DNA of 33,735 bases from Candidatus Magasanikbacteria bacterium RIFOXYD12_FULL_33_17 (GTDB taxonomy: Bacteria > Patescibacteriota > Patescibacteriia > Magasanikbacterales > UBA922), in assembly GCA_001783255.1 (NCBI GenBank), contig MFRB01000100.1, positions 14,653-48,387 of the forward strand, written 5' to 3'. Of this stretch, positions 9,226 through 31,604 are shown piece after piece. The notes beneath the pieces are model-generated. The model made no database searches, was not told the origin of the DNA, and saw nothing but the letters and a program-made list of their open reading frames with translations. The position numbers and the translations under genes were made by a program. Each line of letters begins with the position of its first letter. Position 1 is the stretch's first letter.

Positions 9226-9711
9226 CTATTTAGATATAGATATACTATCACTATTTTCTGATTCACAAGCTGCTACTTTTATGATGCCAGTATCATACTT
9301 TGTGATGGTATAGCCAGTCACACCTACACCCCAAGTTCCAGTACCATTTGGACTAACAGGTACTTCTCCCAGATAACCAGCAGTTACCAAAGCTGTTAAA
9401 TCAACACAATAAGCACTACCACCAACAGCAGTATCACAAGTCAAATTACAACCTTCAGTATCAGTACCAATCATATAGGTACTACCTGCTCCCATACTAT
9501 CAGCTATAGCTGTTGGATAATTACCACCATTATCTACTTGGTAAACTTTGACAGCCGAAATCAAAGCAGAAATATCTGCCCAACGACTTGAATCGCGTGC
9601 ATCTTGAAAACGTTTGAGTGGATCCAATGCCACAAAAACAACAGATGCTAAAATTGCAATGATAGAAATAACTATAAGTAACTCTATCAAAGTAAAACCT
9701 TTCTTAGCCAT
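9226..9711 (-). CDS. pilA: Type IV pilin (prepilin-type N-terminal cleavage/methylation motif); likely the major pilin
   Basis: 161 aa. MAKKG|FTLIELLIVISIIAILASVVFVAL carries the canonical G/FTLIE motif with Glu+5. DPLKRFQDARDSSRWADISALISAVKVY is a typical pilin alpha1-C. Four Cys lie in the C-terminal half. It is the last gene of the operon and is followed by a strong terminator. Confidence 0.85.
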   Translation of the reverse strand: MAKKGFTLIELLIVISIIAILASVVFVALDPLKRFQDARDSSRWADISALISAVKVYQVDNGGNYPTAIADSMGAGSTYMIGTDTEGCNLTCDTAVGGSAYCVDLTALVTAGYLGEVPVSPNGTGTWGVGVTGYTITKYDTGIIKVAACESENSDSISISK

Positions 9712-16400: not shown

Positions 16401-19400
16401 TACGTAGTAACATAACTATAAGTCGGAGAATATGTTGTATAAATTACAGCAAAATAACCATCACTTAACTTCACAACATCAAAATCCTCAGAAGAGGTAT
16501 ACTTACTACCAGATGAATAGATTTGCCCTACATTAATATAACTAAGGTCACTTGTACCAATAACTCCAGTATCACTTATACTTCTAGTTTTTAGATGAAA
16601 ATAAGCTCCTCCGCTTCCTGTAGAATAAGAATAAGCAACAAGATATATATTATTACGTATATTGGTTATACTTTGAGAATTTGGTGCATAGTAAGAAGAA
16701 CCAACATATTGATTTTGAATATAAGTTGTTGGTAAATCACCTATTGGATTACCAATATTTTTCAACTTAGCATTACTAGACTCAAATTCTACGAGAGAAT
16801 TATTATAAACATAATTTGTAGAAGTAGTATAATTATAAGTAAAAGTATCTGTAGGCGTATAATAAATCATACTAGCTTTACCACCTGAAACACTTATATA
16901 TAATGGATCATAATAATATTTAGCATAATCATCAAAAGTCCAAACATAATTAAAAGTAGCAAGACCTGTTTTCAGACCAACCTGCCCACCAGAAAATTCA
17001 ATCTTTTCATTATTATAACTATAATCACTACTATTTGTATAACTTTCATCAATTTCCTCTTTACAATTTACACCTATCGAATCTAATGCGATGTTTTGAT
17101 ATCCTTCACCTACCATAAAAGCTTTGAATGACATCAATCTTGTCGAAGTTGGAAATTCTGCAATATGAGTATCAATATCAACAGCCAGATTGTAATCAGT
17201 ACTCAAAGTAGATGTAGCCCATGAAGAACCATTCCAATACAACCAATTATCACCATTATCATTTGATAATTGATAATATATTTCTCCTGTATCACCTTTT
17301 GTGGCAGCTTCTGTAAAATCTTTCAAAACACCAGTCTCAGTAAATTGTAAAGGTTGGGCGGAACTTATGGTTTGAACTTGATCTGTATACAATTGACCAT
17401 AATAAGTATAAGACAAAGAAGCAACAGTAAATTGATAACCACCAGAATAAGTAGTATAAACAAAATTTAAATATTTATTAGTACTAACCAAAGAACCATT
17501 AATAATAGACATACTACTACCACTAAATACAAAAGTATCAAGTATAGCTGATATTGTACCATCTGAAACAATTGTAACTAAATCAAATACTCCTTGTTGA
17601 GTATTATTATCTGCATAAAAAATAGTATAAAAATCTCCACTAGTATGAACTAAACTACTACTATTACTTGAACCATCTAAATAATTCAAACTATTACCTG
17701 TCAAGTTTATATTACCAGCAGAATCAAAAATAAATGTAACTAAATAACCTTTATAGTTATAATCAGAGATACTGGCACTACCAGTATAATTTAAAACATA
17801 AAGATTTTGCCCAATATTTAAAATACTACCAGCATATCCTAAATTACCAGAACTATATTGGTAACTATCTAAAAAATCATTAGAAATATTACCATTATTA
17901 TCAATAGAAAAACTATTCAGATAAGCACCCGCACCAAGATTATTCCAATTAACGTCATAGAGAGTACCTCCCACCAACATCAAATAATTATCACCCGAAA
18001 TATTTGTCACGCTTTGTGGATAAGGATAAGTATAATCAGTTAATGCTGACAAAGTATCAATATTAGAGACACTACCACTATTATCTACTGAGATAGTCTT
18101 AATAATTACAGAGCCATTCTCTCCTCCGGCTACCCCACCAGTATAAGAATAAGCATAAAAAATATTATCATTTTTTTGACTTAAACCATATACATCTGTA
18201 ATACCCACCATTTCTGAAGCATCAAAAGGTTGTGTAATATTTCCTAAACTATCTACATCAATTATTTTAGCATAAGAGGTAGAAATCCAATTTGTAGTAT
18301 TATACTGAGAATAAAAAATCAAATATCTACTGGCACTACGCTGAAATATTTTTTGATTACCAAATGAGTAGCCAGCACCTCCCCCATATTGTAAATATTT
18401 TCCAGTATCAGTAATATTACCACTATTGTCTATATTAAACATTTTCAGATTTGCGTAAGTAAGTCCTGTTCCGGCAGTCAAATCTCCAGTAAAAAATACA
18501 CCAAACAAACCGGGAGACATTTGTTGAACATCATTAAAATAGCTATTAGGTATTTCACCATTATACATAGAAGAACTGATAAGAACAGCATTACCTAAAC
18601 TATCTACACTAAATGTTTCTATAAAACCAACAGAATAATTACTAACTCCAGATCCATTAATATACTGACCGGAATAAAACACAGCATAGACATCCCCATA
18701 AACATGTTTTATTTTTGCATTACTAGGTTGATTTGCCTGAAGATTTAAAATACTAGAAGCTTGTATATTACCTAGTTCATCCATTGAATATATTTTCAAA
18801 CGTCCAGGATAAGGCGAAACATACTCATAATAAGCCACAGCATAAACACTACCAAATAAATTAGTAGGCGTATTATACGTATAACCATTAGTAATATCGC
18901 TAGCTAAAAAAGCATCACCTAAACCATTGATCTCAGCAGTACCAGTTTCTGTCAAATGAGCTGTACCGTCAGCAACTTCTATTTGTGCATTATCATAAAT
19001 GTAATCAGTAGAAGTAGTAAAAGACCAACCAGTATTCATACAAGAAGCTACTTGACCTGCCATTTCCAAAATCTTAACTTCACCAGCCGTACTATAATCA
19101 ATATTTTCATCATCACTATCATAACCAGCAGTATCACTCAAAACACTCTGCCCTGGACCACTACTCCAATCGGTCTGCGTCCATTCTCTTGAATCCCAAT
19201 TGGTCAGATAAAATTCTCTATCCACTGAATTCGTAACACCAGGTCTGACTTCCCAACTAACGGCTACATTGACCTTTTTTGATTGCAAATCATTTATACC
19301 AGTAGCACAATCTTCAATAGCATTAGTATTACTATTACGACAAACATTGGAAAAAGTAACAGTACGCGTATAATCACCTATTGTCTGAATATTAGTACCA

Positions 19401-24810: not shown

Positions 24811-24830
24811 CCTGCCTGCCGGCAGGCAGG
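24811..24830. repeat. 20-nt perfect GC-rich palindrome (CCTGCCTGCC|GGCAGGCAGG); a REP-like candidate
   Basis: It was read directly from the sequence. It sits in a GC-rich island of about 55 nt (24775-24830), 97 nt downstream of the RAYT-like gene stop, within an otherwise AT-rich spacer. Confidence 0.7.
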
Positions 24831-24926: not shown

Positions 24927-25526
24927 TCAATCACCTAGGAATACTTCTTCAACAGGATATTTTATAAAGCACTCGTTTAATCCATCCATTCCAAAACGCT
25001 TAAACCAAGTTGAATTACTGGAATATTTGTAATGAAAAGACTTTTCTAAACTTGTAACTAGGCCATGCTTGAAAGGATTTTTTATTATATAATTGAAATG
25101 CTTCCAAAAGTCAGCTTTGTTTCTGATACAATAATCGAAGTATTGATACCAGATTTTGCGACCAGGAGTGTCATCTTGTTTATTAATTAATAAGCTTGTT
25201 ATAACATGTAGTCTTTTTATAAATTTTACCAACGTACTTTGATATGAAATATTATGATCAGATTTAGGAGTGGTGAACGTAAGTTCGCCCAGTGAACACA
25301 ATATATGATAATGATTATTTAATAAAAACCAACTATAGATTTTTATATTTAATTCTTTTTGTAAATTTTGCAATACTGAAACAAAGATATCCTTCTTTTG
25401 AGATGTACTAAAATATTTTTTACCTTCAAGACAACGCCCTATGATAAAATAATATGCTCCTTCTACATAAATATGATGTGGACGATTTATGTGTTCCTTA
25501 CCATGTTTAATACCATCATTATACAT
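24927..25526 (-). CDS. REP-associated tyrosine transposase-like protein (RAYT / IS200-type Y1 HUH family)
   Basis: I trimmed the track ORF to the ATG at 25524-25526 (MYNDGIKHGKEH...), which is preceded by a GGGGG Shine-Dalgarno-like run 6 nt upstream. The HUH motif is NNHYHIL. The C-terminal motif KIWYQYFDYCIRNKADFWKHFNYIIKNPFKHGLV matches the Y...IR...Y(I/V)..NP.K.GLV signature of RAYT/COG1943 proteins. Confidence 0.8.
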   Translation of the reverse strand: MYNDGIKHGKEHINRPHHIYVEGAYYFIIGRCLEGKKYFSTSQKKDIFVSVLQNLQKELNIKIYSWFLLNNHYHILCSLGELTFTTPKSDHNISYQSTLVKFIKRLHVITSLLINKQDDTPGRKIWYQYFDYCIRNKADFWKHFNYIIKNPFKHGLVTSLEKSFHYKYSSNSTWFKRFGMDGLNECFIKYPVEEVFLGD

Positions 25527-25582
25527 AATTAACCCCCTAATTATAAACTCAGCAAACTTACGTTTGCCACTCCTACAAAATA

Positions 25583-26728
25583 TCACTTCACCAACATCTC
25601 TAAAAATTCTCTAGCTGTTTTATCCCAATTGAATTTATCTTTTTGGGAGAAACAAACATTGTCTTTTTTATTTTTTATAACTTCTAGCAAAGAATTTTTT
25701 AATTCTATAATATTATGTGGATTAACCAACTTCACACCATCATCCACAATTTCTGACAAAGATGAACGGTTACTAGTAATAACAGGCACTTGCGAAATCA
25801 AAGCCTCCAAGACAGGAAAACCAAAACCTTCATACAAACTAGGATAAACAAATAGCTCAGCTAATTTGTAAAGAGCAGGTTTATCTTCAGCATCAACATA
25901 ACCAATATAATTGACTCCCCTAGTATTATCGATACTAGAGATTATTTTGTCATATTTCCAACCACGTGTACCAGCAATTACTAGATGTATCTTTTTATTT
26001 ATCAAATTTGATTTACGATAAGCATCTATAATAGACAAAATATTTTTACGAGGCTCAAGAGTACCTAAGAAAAAGATAAATTTCTCTGGTAAATTGTATT
26101 TACACTTTAATTTTTCTCTATCAATATTTTGTGACAAAAATTGTAAAAATTTTTTACTAATTCCTGGATACAAAACTTTGATAGAATTAGGATTAAGATG
26201 ATAGACATCTACTAAATCATTTTTGGTATTTTGCGATGGCGTAAAAACAAAATGAGCTTTGTGAACCTGTTGTCTAGTCTTGATAAGACTATGCCACAAT
26301 AACATTTTTTTACTAAAACAACTTGGTAAAAATTCAAAACTCAAATCATGCACAGTCAAAACATGTTTCGTATCTTTTGATAAATTGGTAAAATTAAAAT
26401 TTGGTGAAAACCAATAATCTAATCTATCTACTCTTGTGCTTGTTAATTTTTTATTTACCTGACTTTGCAATAATTTATCCAAATTAAAAATTTTTAATAA
26501 CAATAATATATTAAAGATCTTATTTGGAAATTTCGTAGCTACAAAATGAACATTCGCCTGTAGCCAATTTGGCAAACCATCTCTAACATCTTTGAAAGAA
26601 TTATAGAACAAAAAATAATTATTTTCTTTATCCAAAGCAAAAAGACTATCCAAAAGCTCATAAGTATACTCACCTACTCCTGTACGTTTTTTGTCAGTCA
26701 GACTACGGATGTCAATTGCAATATTCAT
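25583..26728 (-). CDS. Glycosyltransferase, family 4
   Basis: The track ORF begins at TTG (26809). I trimmed it to the ATG at 26726-26728 (MNIAIDIRSL..KRTGVGEY), which aligns with the N-terminus of the paralog at 23658-24767. The C-terminal motif is FVYPSLYEGFGFPVLEA. Confidence 0.85.
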   Translation of the reverse strand: MNIAIDIRSLTDKKRTGVGEYTYELLDSLFALDKENNYFLFYNSFKDVRDGLPNWLQANVHFVATKFPNKIFNILLLLKIFNLDKLLQSQVNKKLTSTRVDRLDYWFSPNFNFTNLSKDTKHVLTVHDLSFEFLPSCFSKKMLLWHSLIKTRQQVHKAHFVFTPSQNTKNDLVDVYHLNPNSIKVLYPGISKKFLQFLSQNIDREKLKCKYNLPEKFIFFLGTLEPRKNILSIIDAYRKSNLINKKIHLVIAGTRGWKYDKIISSIDNTRGVNYIGYVDAEDKPALYKLAELFVYPSLYEGFGFPVLEALISQVPVITSNRSSLSEIVDDGVKLVNPHNIIELKNSLLEVIKNKKDNVCFSQKDKFNWDKTAREFLEMLVK

Positions 26729-29605: not shown

Positions 29606-29648
29606 ACAACAATAGACACTATCTTAATTTTAAATTCCTAAATTTTTA

Positions 29649-29679
29649 ACAAAAAACCACCTTGTTTATACAAGCTGGT
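29649..29679 (-). terminator. Rho-independent terminator of rnpB
   Basis: The minus-strand RNA reads ACCAGCUUG-UAUAAA-CAAGGUGGU-UUUUUGUU. The stem has 8 of 9 positions paired. It lies about 10 nt after the 3' strand of P1. Confidence 0.65.
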
Positions 29680-29687
29680 CTTAATTA

Positions 29688-30259
29688 TTCATTCTACATT
29701 TATAAGCCGAATTCTGTACACCTGCGCTAAAGCTTCGGAGTACAAGTAATCTACTAAATAACGTATGATTAACTTGTCAGCTAAAGCTTTAAGTATGCTT
29801 GACTTGTCAGCCAAAGCTTCAGCGTAGGCTGATGATCATTTATCTAGACCTATAATTGCTTATAGGCTCAAACGAGCTAACTTTTCGAAACGATAAATCG
29901 CAACGCTGCTCTTTCTTCAGATAGGGTTTACCACGGCATCTCATCACTAAGAGCCGAAGCTTGTAACCATTTGTCAATTGTGCAAATGATATCAAACTAC
30001 TTTTCACCTTTCCCTCACCCGCCGAAGCTTTAGCGAAGGCTGGGTCCGTGTTTGATACACGTATCCGCCTCCGCCAAGGCTCTGGCGGACGAAGTAGTAT
30101 TGTCTCTGTGGCACTTTCCCGCCCAATATTCTTACGAATAAAGAGGGTGGACGTTATCCACTACCTTTGTCTCCACTCTTCGAGAAGAGTGTTAGGAAGT
30201 TCGGACTTTCCTATTAGTCACAATTAAGTAACCAATCGATCACCAAATGTAAAATGAAT
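29688..30259 (-). ncRNA. rnpB: RNase P RNA (bacterial), unusually long at about 570 nt
   Basis: The minus strand contains AGGAAAGTCCGAAC (complement of 30199-30212, CR-I/P4 5' strand), GGGAAAGTGCCACAGAGAC, GCCGTGGTAAACCC, CTAGATAAATGATC and ACAGAATTCGGCTTATA (complement of 29701-29717, CR-V/P4 3' strand). These appear in the same order as in E. coli M1 RNA. P1 is CATTTTACATTT (30245-30256) paired with AAATGTAGAATG (29690-29701). P2 is GGTGATC (30238-30244) paired with GATCATC (29831-29837). A P8-like hairpin GTGGA-TAACG-TCCAC and a GNRA hairpin TATTC-GTAA-GAATA are present. The region is a GC-rich island with no ORF, and it has its own promoter and terminator. The ends are approximate. Confidence 0.85.
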
Positions 30260-30265
30260 AGGCTA

Positions 30266-30294
30266 AATATAGCAGAAAAAAGCTTTTTTGTCAA
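30266..30294 (-). promoter_or_regulatory. Promoter of rnpB
   Basis: The minus strand reads TTGACA-17 nt-TATATT. The -35 is at 30289-30294 and the -10 is at 30266-30271. This places the predicted start about 7 nt downstream, right at the beginning of the P1 stem. Confidence 0.65.
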
Positions 30295-30305
30295 TGATAA
30301 AATCT

Positions 30306-31472
30306 TTATTCAAAAGAAAAACTGCCATAATGAGAAATAATATCATCATATATTTCTTCTCTAGTTTTTTCAGGATGCCTCAAGTTTACCATATAAGCAA
30401 CATCTTCTTCAATTTCGTGATATTCAGCCTCCACATCACCATAAATGAGACCTTGTATGGAATCTAAAAGACCCAGACTACTAGCTATAATATTATTTTG
30501 ACTACCTTCATAAATATCCAAATATAAAGAATTCAAAATCCAAAAATAAGATTTTTTATCATCTTTCTCTATACCAGTTGCAAAATCATCAAAACCATAC
30601 GACTTAGCAAGACGTACCATCGCTATTTTATCACCATAATTTATAGAAGCACATTGCAAAAGGTTAAAACCATCTTTATAATTATCTTCACGTAAATATC
30701 TCACACCTAAAGCTTCCAGATATTCACCAATTTCATCATAAAATTCTGTTGATCTTATTTTTTCTTCCAAAACATCATTGGATAATTTATTTAAGTTATT
30801 CCTATAATCCAAATTTTTCTGTTTTTCAGAATCAGAGACTTCTTCAAATAGATCATAAATTAAAACTAAAGGTTCTTTTTTACAATAATCATTGTATATC
30901 TCCAAGTTTGAATTTATTTCTTTAGTATATTTATCCAAAATATCTTGTGATACATAAGTATAAATAGACAAACAATCATCAGCTTTAACATTAAAAACAA
31001 AATTTTTCCCTGTATTTTGTTCAATATAAGAATAAATCAAATCTATATTTTGATTCAAAATTTCTTTAGAAAAAGAATCATAACAAGTATCATATACTAA
31101 ATTATTAGTTATGACATCCTTGTCGTCATCATTAAAAACGCCTTCACTAATTATATAATGATATTTTATAGAATTGTCCTCTGCTGTAATGTCAATGGTA
31201 GTAGTAAATTCATCCAAACGAGCAGGTAATTCAAAATCAATTTTCAACTTATCAACTAACCCCGCAATATATTCTTTATTTTCCTTTGAAGATATATTTT
31301 GTACATTACCTTCGTCTTTAGGTTTATTAGCCAAATACCAATAAAAAAAATAAATGCCAATTATAAACAAGAATACCAAAAATATTAAGAACTTAAATTT
31401 TCTTCCCCTTTTCTTTGAAGGTGTCCCCGTTTCTAAAATTTTATCTTCTGTAAGATTATTTTGGTATTCCAT
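30306..31472 (-). CDS. Hypothetical single-pass membrane protein
   Basis: I trimmed the track ORF to the ATG at 31470-31472 (MEYQNNLTEDK...), because the upstream extension reads through the tRNA gene. The TM helix is FKFLIFLVFLFIIGIYFFYWYL. The rest is acidic and Asn/Tyr-rich. A weak Sel1/TPR-like stretch near the C-terminus (GDKIAMVRLAKSYGFDDFATGIEKDDKKSYFW) is only suggestive. Confidence 0.6.
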   Translation of the reverse strand: MEYQNNLTEDKILETGTPSKKRGRKFKFLIFLVFLFIIGIYFFYWYLANKPKDEGNVQNISSKENKEYIAGLVDKLKIDFELPARLDEFTTTIDITAEDNSIKYHYIISEGVFNDDDKDVITNNLVYDTCYDSFSKEILNQNIDLIYSYIEQNTGKNFVFNVKADDCLSIYTYVSQDILDKYTKEINSNLEIYNDYCKKEPLVLIYDLFEEVSDSEKQKNLDYRNNLNKLSNDVLEEKIRSTEFYDEIGEYLEALGVRYLREDNYKDGFNLLQCASINYGDKIAMVRLAKSYGFDDFATGIEKDDKKSYFWILNSLYLDIYEGSQNNIIASSLGLLDSIQGLIYGDVEAEYHEIEEDVAYMVNLRHPEKTREEIYDDIISHYGSFSFE

Positions 31473-31522
31473 AGAACATACTATTAATCTAAAAAGATCC
31501 CAAGCAATCCTTATTTTTATAG

Positions 31523-31604
31523 TGTCGAAGGGGGGACTCGAACCCCCACGCCCTTGCGAGCCTAACACCTCAAGCTAGTGTGTATACCATTCCACCACTC
31601 CGAC
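31523..31604 (-). tRNA. tRNA-Leu (anticodon GAG), class II with a long variable arm and no encoded CCA
   Basis: I folded it by hand. The acceptor stem is GTCGGAG/CTTCGAC with one G-U pair. The D stem is 3 bp with GG in the loop. The anticodon stem is CTAGC/GTTAG with loop TTGAGGT (anticodon GAG, G37). The variable arm is GCTC-GCAA-GGGC. The T arm is GGGGG-TTCGAGT-CCCCC. The discriminator is A. Confidence 0.9.

Follow-up and report, generated by a model that had tools for sequence, protein, structure and literature searches.

According to the passages of Lui et al. (2021; PMC8172020) that concern them, the RNase P RNAs of Candidate Phyla Radiation (CPR) bacteria commonly carry 'large extensions of helices' or lack helices, and the CCA-binding motif is missing in approximately two thirds of them. 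We analyzed the RNase P RNA gene (rnpB) of one such bacterium, Candidatus Magasanikbacteria bacterium RIFOXYD12_FULL_33_17, in a 33,735-nt stretch of its genome (hereafter the window), and found that its excess length over the nearest relative resides in two peripheral helices, P12 and P19, both of which carry an inverted pair of copies of a short dispersed hairpin repeat, termed here module M.

The systems closest to these inserts come from other bacteria. Intervening sequences of 23S rRNA are extended hairpins that are excised by RNase III, and Rickettsia palindromic elements (RPE) are approximately 100 to 150 bp long and not known outside Rickettsia. The repeats of the SDR families reportedly measure 21 to 27 nt, are dispersed and insert one inside another without a known mover, and the rnpB helix lengthened by STRR repeats in cyanobacteria is said to be P12. 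The STRR repeats within cyanobacterial rnpB were described by Vioque (1997, as cited in PMC2858038), and the SDR families, very small repeats of Nostocaceae, by Elhai et al. (2008, Genome Res 18:1484, as cited in PMC3116915). Of the RPE copies in R. bellii, 53 lie inside protein-coding genes and one within the gene for tmRNA (PMC1458961), and REPINs are inverted pairs of short GC-rich hairpin repeats that form a long hairpin and are mobilized by RAYT transposases (PMC3337134, PMC3116915).

The initial annotation of the window had proposed an RNase P RNA of approximately 570 nt that is delimited by a P1 stem, preceded by a TTGACA-17-TATATT promoter, followed shortly by a terminator and equipped with all recognizable core elements in collinear order, and it had assumed a CPR host. 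All of these features were recovered (Table 1). A cmscan search of Rfam yielded a non-truncated match to RF00010 (RNaseP_bact_a; 127.7 bits with a gathering score of 100 bits, E = 4.9e-39) that spans model positions 1-367 in full, and thus the class-A covariance model did not reduce the length to a normal one. Because the P1 inverted repeat comprises 16 nt (94%), the transcript may reach approximately 575 nt. The promoter matches 11 of the 12 consensus positions, and the region 30302-30095, containing the promoter and the start of the gene, is 98% identical to that of G004, the closest relative among the genomes of a species-level collection. The terminator was overlooked by a consensus scan because its stem has one mismatch; the 53 nt located 3' of P1 nevertheless fold into a hairpin (-15 kcal/mol, z -4.6). 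The promoter, the terminator and the fold of the whole 575-nt RNA (-206.6 kcal/mol, z -8.0) are consistent with a complete transcription unit. The host assignment is corroborated by the PilB protein encoded nearby, which is 99% identical to a protein recorded for a Patescibacteria group bacterium and 85% identical to Candidatus Magasanikbacteria proteins.

This is the single rnpB match in the genome (G000, a 134-contig metagenome bin of 1.02 Mb with 32% G+C), and the RnpA protein subunit is encoded at G000:C34:10109-10465 (PF00825, 64.2 bits). The cmscan alignment contains CR-I, GUGCCACAG, GGUAAAC, CUAGAU...GAU and CR-V in collinear order, with high posterior probability for the two P4 strands, AGGAAAGUCCGAAC and ACAGAAUUCGGCUUAU (29717-29702). 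The helices P1-P4 with CR-I (GGAAAGUCCG) and CR-V (ACAGAAnnCGGCUUA) able to pair as P4, by which the universal core is defined, are all present. The class-A helices P13, P14 and P18 were aligned by the model and also found by the thermodynamic fold, which yields P1, P2, P3, a J5/7 hairpin, P8, P9, P12, P13/14, P15, P18 and P19. The P16/17 element is reduced to one short hairpin, the J5/7 hairpin occupies the type-B P5.1 position, and the P6 pseudoknot is unscored by the model. The L15 loop reads AAGUUAG instead of the consensus GGGUagg, having AGU in place of the CCA-binding GGU. This GGU motif pairs with the tRNA 3' CCA and is typical of class A, although not universal. The gene is a member of RF00010, with the defining features of the family and with deviations that are typical of CPR. 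Within the window, only RNase P RNA and a tRNA reach the Rfam gathering scores, and no model of a group I or group II self-splicing intron matched the inserts, which are simple hairpins of 75 and 112 nt. We regard this class-A locus as probably the only RNase P RNA gene of the Candidatus Magasanikbacteria genome, and as functional in appearance.

The position of the excess length was determined by pairwise BLAST comparison with the 410-nt rnpB of G004. The three blocks common to both genes are 98.1%, 97.9% and 94.7% identical, and the identity of the rnpB core reaches 99.6% over 238 columns. The sugar-transferase gene flanking rnpB in G004 has 88.8% DNA identity. Exactly two segments have been replaced, one in P12 and one in P19, and there are no other length differences: their contributions of 63 and 96 nt add up to 159 nt, which is the difference between 569 and 410 nt. 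The borders of the inserts are clean, and synteny with G004 is preserved on both sides. The extra length is thus confined to peripheral helices, as the initial annotation had expected; the second large contributor, P12, had gone unmentioned there. The additional hairpin that it noted after P4/P5 is real but has no part in the 159-nt excess, because it is common to the whole genus; this J5/7 hairpin is genus- and family-wide and occurs in G001 and G005 as the compensatory variant CACCCUUC/GAAGGGUG. A difference of 159 nt at 99.6% core identity suggests that wholesale exchange of helix tips for dispersed hairpin DNA, rather than slow drift, can enlarge the structural RNAs of reduced genomes.

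Both replaced segments fold into rods. The P12 rod has a folding energy of -51 kcal/mol (z -6.3). In the P19 rod (-41 kcal/mol, z -4.3), an outer stem of 18 bp, which includes one A·C mismatch, is followed by an internal loop, an inner stem of 6 bp (ACAAGU/ACUUGU) and finally a branched tip; the rod also contains a 30-nt tandem duplication with units at 29763-29789 and 29793-29819 that are 89% identical. Module M was traced from AAGCUU words recurring in the inserts, although simple counts of the AAGCTT motif were uninformative. It comprises approximately 33 nt, namely a GC-rich stem strand of 6-7 nt, the loop TTCGCTAAAGCTAC with AAGCUU as its palindromic center, the complementary stem strand and a final (C)AAG. 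Five M-like copies are present in the window rnpB, all of them within the two inserts, whereas at the same threshold no matches were obtained for the reversed pattern, for each of 300 shuffled patterns or for the G004 rnpB. Each insert is an inverted pair of M copies, and the inserts fold into rods because the copies are paired in this way. For positions 30022-30039 of P12 and 29721-29738 of the P19 3' arm, complementarity was found at 17 of 18 positions.

Module M is dispersed far beyond rnpB. Allowing up to 3 mismatches, the 25-mer CTTCGCTAAAGCTWCGGCGGGCAAG had 21 matches in 12 related genomes and none for the reversed control; three of its copies are in G000. Among 301 sampled Patescibacteria genomes, M was present in 74 (25%), with a maximum of 18 copies per genome and no control matches. 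In the species-level genome collection, the 25-mer is letter-perfect in at least 120 contigs of CPR and many other phyla, including records from Acidobacteriota, Bacteroidota, Planctomycetota, Verrucomicrobiota, Nitrospirota and Proteobacteria. Several letter-perfect copies belong to a cultured member of the Bacteroidota, Chryseolinea serpens DSM 24574 (loci L102, L105, L108 and L143 among the examples). The letter-perfect copies (loci L086-L165) come from genomes with 41-66% G+C and always appear as an island of approximately 33 nt with unrelated flanks; at some loci (L088, L102, L137) M is nested in the loop of another M copy, and elsewhere half-units are repeated. The nested arrangement points to GCT^AAAGC as a candidate insertion site. 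When 201 genomes of the order were searched by BLAST, the P12 insert matched 59 of them, nearly always through the M part (query positions 53-85).

The stem of M shows covariation. Across 29 copies, 79% of cells pair, as opposed to 30-45% in slid controls, and double-change cells number 22 compared with 8.7 +/- 2.5 in shuffles, none of the 500 shuffles reaching the observed value. Copies of M occupy both spacers and genes. A spacer copy is located on contig C121 of G000, three copies are read in frame in protein genes of this genome (Table 1), and the SerRS-like genes of G002 and G001 carry M at an orthologous position. The rnpB genes of relatives hold M too, that of G013 within J5/7 and that of G036 within P19. 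A search of a paper library for the M DNA or its three peptide readings found no report, nor did searches that combined REP, MITE or RAYT with CPR turn up a description. With no known moving enzyme and the same letters across phyla, M may be a more interesting object than rnpB itself. A profile of 12-mer recurrence was enriched in GCTGAAGCTTTGGCTGA, which is probably codon-driven (Ala-Glu-Ala-Leu-Ala) and was not used as evidence.

The same helices vary sporadically among relatives. P12 and P19 are short in G004, G005 and G001; G004 and G005 (core identity with the window 99.6% and 97.1%, respectively) have a common CCCGAC-type P19 hairpin, and the next closest, G001 (core 89.5%), has a different short one, GUCUCGAUUUAUCGAGAU. 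G003, which belongs to another subclade of the same genus (core identity 85.3%), has a homologous P19 pair without the tandem duplication, in which all 24 pairs are kept with one compensatory and four one-sided changes, and its source contig is the sole match of the P19 5' junction in metagenome contigs. The genomes closest to G003, namely G002 and G006, carry unrelated short P19 hairpins. G547, whose family within the order is a different one, has a 564-nt rnpB in which P12 is the same inverted M pair, with 77% identity over the whole 87-nt query and all 30 pairs kept, three compensatory changes included; the window and G547 share 76% identity in P12 (arms approximately 90%), as against approximately 51% for the crudely aligned remainder. 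The simplest reading of this distribution would be that hairpins were acquired or exchanged more than once at these permissive tips.

Hairpins of another family, CCCGAC-N3-5-GTCGGG, were found at 71 loci in the 12 related genomes and at none for the reversed control. This family is present in rnpB as well, in P19 of G005 (C3:98389-98403) and in P3 of G013 (C71:16184-16198), and a version with a 2-nt loop is found in P12 of two genomes (G001, G003) and in P19 of G004. Since the M and CCCGAC families both occupy rnpB helices of relatives, the rnpB helix tips in this lineage are drawn from the genomes' pool of dispersed hairpins. The resulting genes show at which natural positions the ribozyme tolerates large inserts, namely P3, J5/7, P12, P16/17 and P19.

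The size of the window rnpB, proposed initially as far above the usual bacterial range, is exceptional in comparison with E. coli or B. subtilis but not within its lineage. Matches in a 41-genome sample of relatives ranged from 355 to 741 nt. Once misplaced ends had been mended (G003, G006) and G018 re-scanned, the order-level sample comprised 39 genes, seven of which exceed 500 nt (G014, 741 nt; G013, 591; G036, 587; the window, 569; G003, 552; G018, 533; G007, 528). In a phylum-wide sample, 11 of the 150 best-scoring matches were longer than 500 nt, with a maximum of 647 nt, and lower-scoring matches outside these best 150 are likely longer. The large size is therefore one instance of a lineage-wide pattern that has already been noted. 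The 5' end was misplaced by cmsearch in both G003 (locus L032) and G006 (L026), as was the 3' end in G003, because of an inverted-pair insert of approximately 85 nt in P3 and, in G003, also the P19 insert; the true lengths are approximately 552 rather than 424 nt and 488 rather than 379 nt, respectively. The genes of G013 and G036 score below the RF00010 gathering score. Covariance models thus under-score or mis-bound such rnpB genes, and knowledge of the insert positions improves rnpB calls in CPR.

The inserts can be set against each of the described systems. As in the CPR RNAs treated in the cited passages of PMC8172020, the window RNA is derived from class A, with helix extensions, a low covariance-model score and loss of the L15 motif, which is frequent there. 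In these passages the extensions are treated briefly, with an extended P15 as the example and without the origin of the extra sequence, whereas the extensions in the window are in P12 and P19 and were traced to a dispersed hairpin repeat. With STRR the inserts share the entry of a genome-wide short repeat into the sole rnpB, where it lengthens a peripheral helix; STRR, however, are tandem heptanucleotide arrays, and here hairpin modules of approximately 33 nt form inverted pairs in two helices. The window rnpB yielded no heptamer array, and its sole tandem repeat is the 30-nt duplication. Like RPE, M is found between genes as well as within them, both in frame in coding sequences and in a gene for a structural RNA (rnpB of the window, G013 and G036), but it measures approximately 33 nt and is letter-perfect across many phyla.

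The resemblance to REPINs lies in the arrangement, since the P12 and P19 inserts are each an inverted pair of M and the genome has one RAYT-like gene. REPINs are extragenic, abundant and vertically inherited, whereas M is low-copy in G000, resides inside genes and is not restricted to a lineage. Like the SDR repeats, M is far below 100 nt and nests in the loops of other M copies; the SDR sequences are unrelated to M as far as we can tell, and we know of no report of SDRs in RNase P RNA. As with 23S intervening sequences, the rods replace native helix tips, are sporadic among close relatives and coexist with an encoded RNase III, although the host RNA here is RNase P RNA and not rRNA. The inserts fall short of the definition of each of the STRR, RPE, REPIN and SDR families and resemble them in behavior alone.

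The RAYT-like tyrosine transposase gene is single-copy and located in the window at 24927-25586 on the minus strand, within a glycosyltransferase operon; its match to NF047646 (76.9 bits, E = 1.4e-21) is just under the cut-off of 80 bits. It is followed by the palindrome CCTGCCTGCCGGCAGGCAGG (24811-24830), which recurs across the genome in at least 20 copies, most often in the form AAGAAACCTGCCTGCCGGCAGGCAGGGATCC. In the 741-nt rnpB of G014, CCUGCCUGCCGGCAGGCG was observed within the P12 insert. The Ssn/SRM motif, in the form of the search pattern of Chenal et al. (2025), did not fit M as judged by inspection.

For the origin of the rods we favor the following mechanism. Bacterial RNase P RNAs vary at P12 and at the J2/4 (P19) position or can dispense with them, and both face outward with respect to the active site. 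At the tips of these solvent-facing helices, repeat DNA would have been inserted or exchanged, giving rise to the long rods in which they now end, with the core and the class-A landmarks intact. The facing M copies would pair over their whole length, and since paired copies simply extend the host helix, the ribozyme would tolerate them; the 30-nt tandem duplication would have lengthened the P19 rod later. The mature RNA probably keeps the rods as tolerated, neutral or near-neutral expansion segments, and the enzyme would function as other class-A RNase P enzymes do. Several observations weigh against this mechanism. No second full-length copy of either insert was found in the genome, where blastn-short matches extend over just 12-15 nt, a result by which an origin as copies of a long multi-copy element of G000 was also rejected; no donor copy was identified, and we therefore propose insertion solely on the basis of the M modules. 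Of the five M copies, two match weakly (8/25 mismatches each), and the exact P12 tip had no match in other metagenome contigs. The P19 arms of the window and G003 are 83-86% identical, about as much as the cores. The RAYT-like gene is unsupported as the mover of M, the palindrome flanking it being of a different family.

Several alternatives were weighed. Both inserts are long, nearly perfect double-stranded RNA (approximately 32 bp in P12; 18 + 6 bp in P19) that replaces native helix tips sporadically among close relatives, as in rRNA intervening sequences, and an RNase III gene (G000:C100:13477-13872) is on the same contig as rnpB; these facts would also suit rods cut by RNase III without re-ligation, in which case the ribozyme would consist of two to three fragments joined by P1, P2, P4 and the base of P12. 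The compensatory changes that preserve rod pairing would be needed by such an excision signal but are equally expected of a recent inverted repeat. We know of no report of a naturally fragmented bacterial RNase P RNA, and no 23S rRNA, the RNA of the classical excision sites, is present in the genome bin. We consider excision rather unlikely, and give slightly less credence still to its broader form, in which M-class hairpins would spread across phyla and land as inverted pairs in P12, P19, P3 and J5/7, RNase III excision leaving a ribozyme of two to three pieces. The homologous rods at the same sites in G003 (P19) and G547 (P12), as well as the similar identities of arms and core between the window and G003, could instead reflect old, vertically inherited helices that were repeatedly shortened in relatives. 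However, this requires several independent precise replacements because G004, G005 and G001 are all short at both helices, G004 and G005 with a shared CCCGAC hairpin of a different kind in P19. Moreover, P12 is far more alike between the window and G547 than the crudely aligned remainder, and the rod modules match a repeat dispersed at unrelated loci; an old origin is thus improbable.

A recruited function, be it as a protein platform, as a tertiary or dimer contact or in an interaction of P12 with P19 via their 18-nt complementarity, would agree with the extent of that complementarity, with the recurrence of the same architecture at the same helices in different families and with the strong conservation of the M loop. 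The complementarity, however, is a trivial consequence of two M copies in opposite orientation, and each strand has a better local partner within its own rod. The closest relatives manage without either rod, and the M loop shows the same degree of conservation where it lies in spacers or protein genes of unrelated phyla, which makes recruitment quite improbable. The least credible explanation, to which we assign hardly any weight, is an assembly or binning artefact or a decaying pseudogene: although the genome is a bin of 134 contigs and the exact P12 tip was found in no other metagenome contig, an artefact is unlikely because the independent assemblies of G003 and G547 carry homologous inserts at the same sites, and the clean borders with synteny to G004 on both sides, the intact core and the presence of only one rnpB copy in the genome also speak against it.

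Table 1. Coordinates of rnpB, its parts and copies of module M. Positions refer to the window unless a contig of G000 is given.
Feature	Position	Strand	Details
rnpB, class A	29687..30255	-	569 nt by covariance model; ~575 nt (29686-30260) counting full P1 repeat
Sigma-70-type promoter	30266..30294	-	TTGACA 30294-30289, 17-nt spacer, TATATT 30271-30266, TG before -10
P1 5' strand	30245..30260	-	partner 29686-29701; inverted repeat and fold
CR-I / P4 5' strand	30199..30212	-	AGGAAAGUCCGAAC
J5/7 (P5.1-position) hairpin	30174..30191	-	CACUCUUC-UC-GAAGAGUG (CACUCUU-CUCG-AAGAGUG), between P5 and P7
P12 rod	30013..30095	-	83 nt, ~32 bp; 30020-30094 replaces 12 nt of G004
P12 replaced segment	30094-30020		75 nt; 12 nt in G004; +63
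M-like copy P12a	30063-30090	+	reverse with respect to RNA; 8/25 mismatches
M copy P12b	30014-30044	-	forward with respect to RNA; 2/25 mismatches; CCCAGCC-UUCGCUAAAGCUUC-GGCGGGU
P13/P14 region	29934..29999	-	P13 loop 33 nt compared with 7 in model; enlarged loop family-wide
P15, reduced P16/17 hairpin and P18	29848..29911	-	P16/17 hairpin 29874-29911; P18 29848-29867
P19 rod	29720..29830	-	111 nt; 29719-29830 (112 nt) replaces 16-nt G004 hairpin
P19 replaced segment	29830-29719		112 nt; 16 nt in G004; +96
M copy P19 5' arm	29803-29833	-	forward with respect to RNA; 5/25 mismatches
M partial copy, P19	29773-29803	-	forward; 8/25 mismatches; from 30-nt tandem duplication
M copy P19 3' arm	29716-29746	+	reverse with respect to RNA; 4/25 mismatches
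CR-V / P4 3' strand	29702..29719	-	GUACAGAAUUCGGCUUAU
Intrinsic terminator	29648..29680	-	12-bp hairpin, one mismatch, then UUUUUUGUU
M in frame, UDP-glucose-dehydrogenase-like ORF	G000 C35 (~17015-17039)		...SSAKATAGKQ..., two tandem modules
M in frame, ValRS-like ORF	G000 C18 (~170-195)		...SSYAEASDDKQ...
M in frame, MnmA-like ORF	G000 C96 (~9377-9401)		...RRSFGEGGQ...

Two further kinds of repeats were observed in passing. A third repeat family of G000 consists of hairpin pairs approximately 75 nt apart, CCCCTCCTAnTAGGAGGGG ... CTCCCCCTAnTAGGGGGAG, with examples at C96:153-247, C113:3317-3411, C91:1312-1406, C121:22700-22794 and C132:1504-1598. Composite nested palindromes of the form CCGCCCAAGGCGGATCC[...]GCCTTGGGCGG, with other hairpins in their loops, were seen on C69, C122, C6 and C53.

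Near rnpB there are an operon for type IV pili and genes for glycosyltransferases and for a DUF4012 protein. Between the rnpB promoter and the tRNA-Leu(GAG) gene (31522-31604) there is a segment of approximately 1.2 kb with one open reading frame (ORF) at 30306-31568 on the minus strand, encoding approximately 390 aa with one predicted membrane anchor. Its probable start is the Met codon at approximately 31473 (residue 33 of the frame), which is downstream of the tRNA-Leu gene, and it had no Pfam, NCBIfam or PHROG match. The segment is missing from G004, in which the tRNA gene is located 77 nt upstream of rnpB, and may represent a small insertion beside a tRNA gene.

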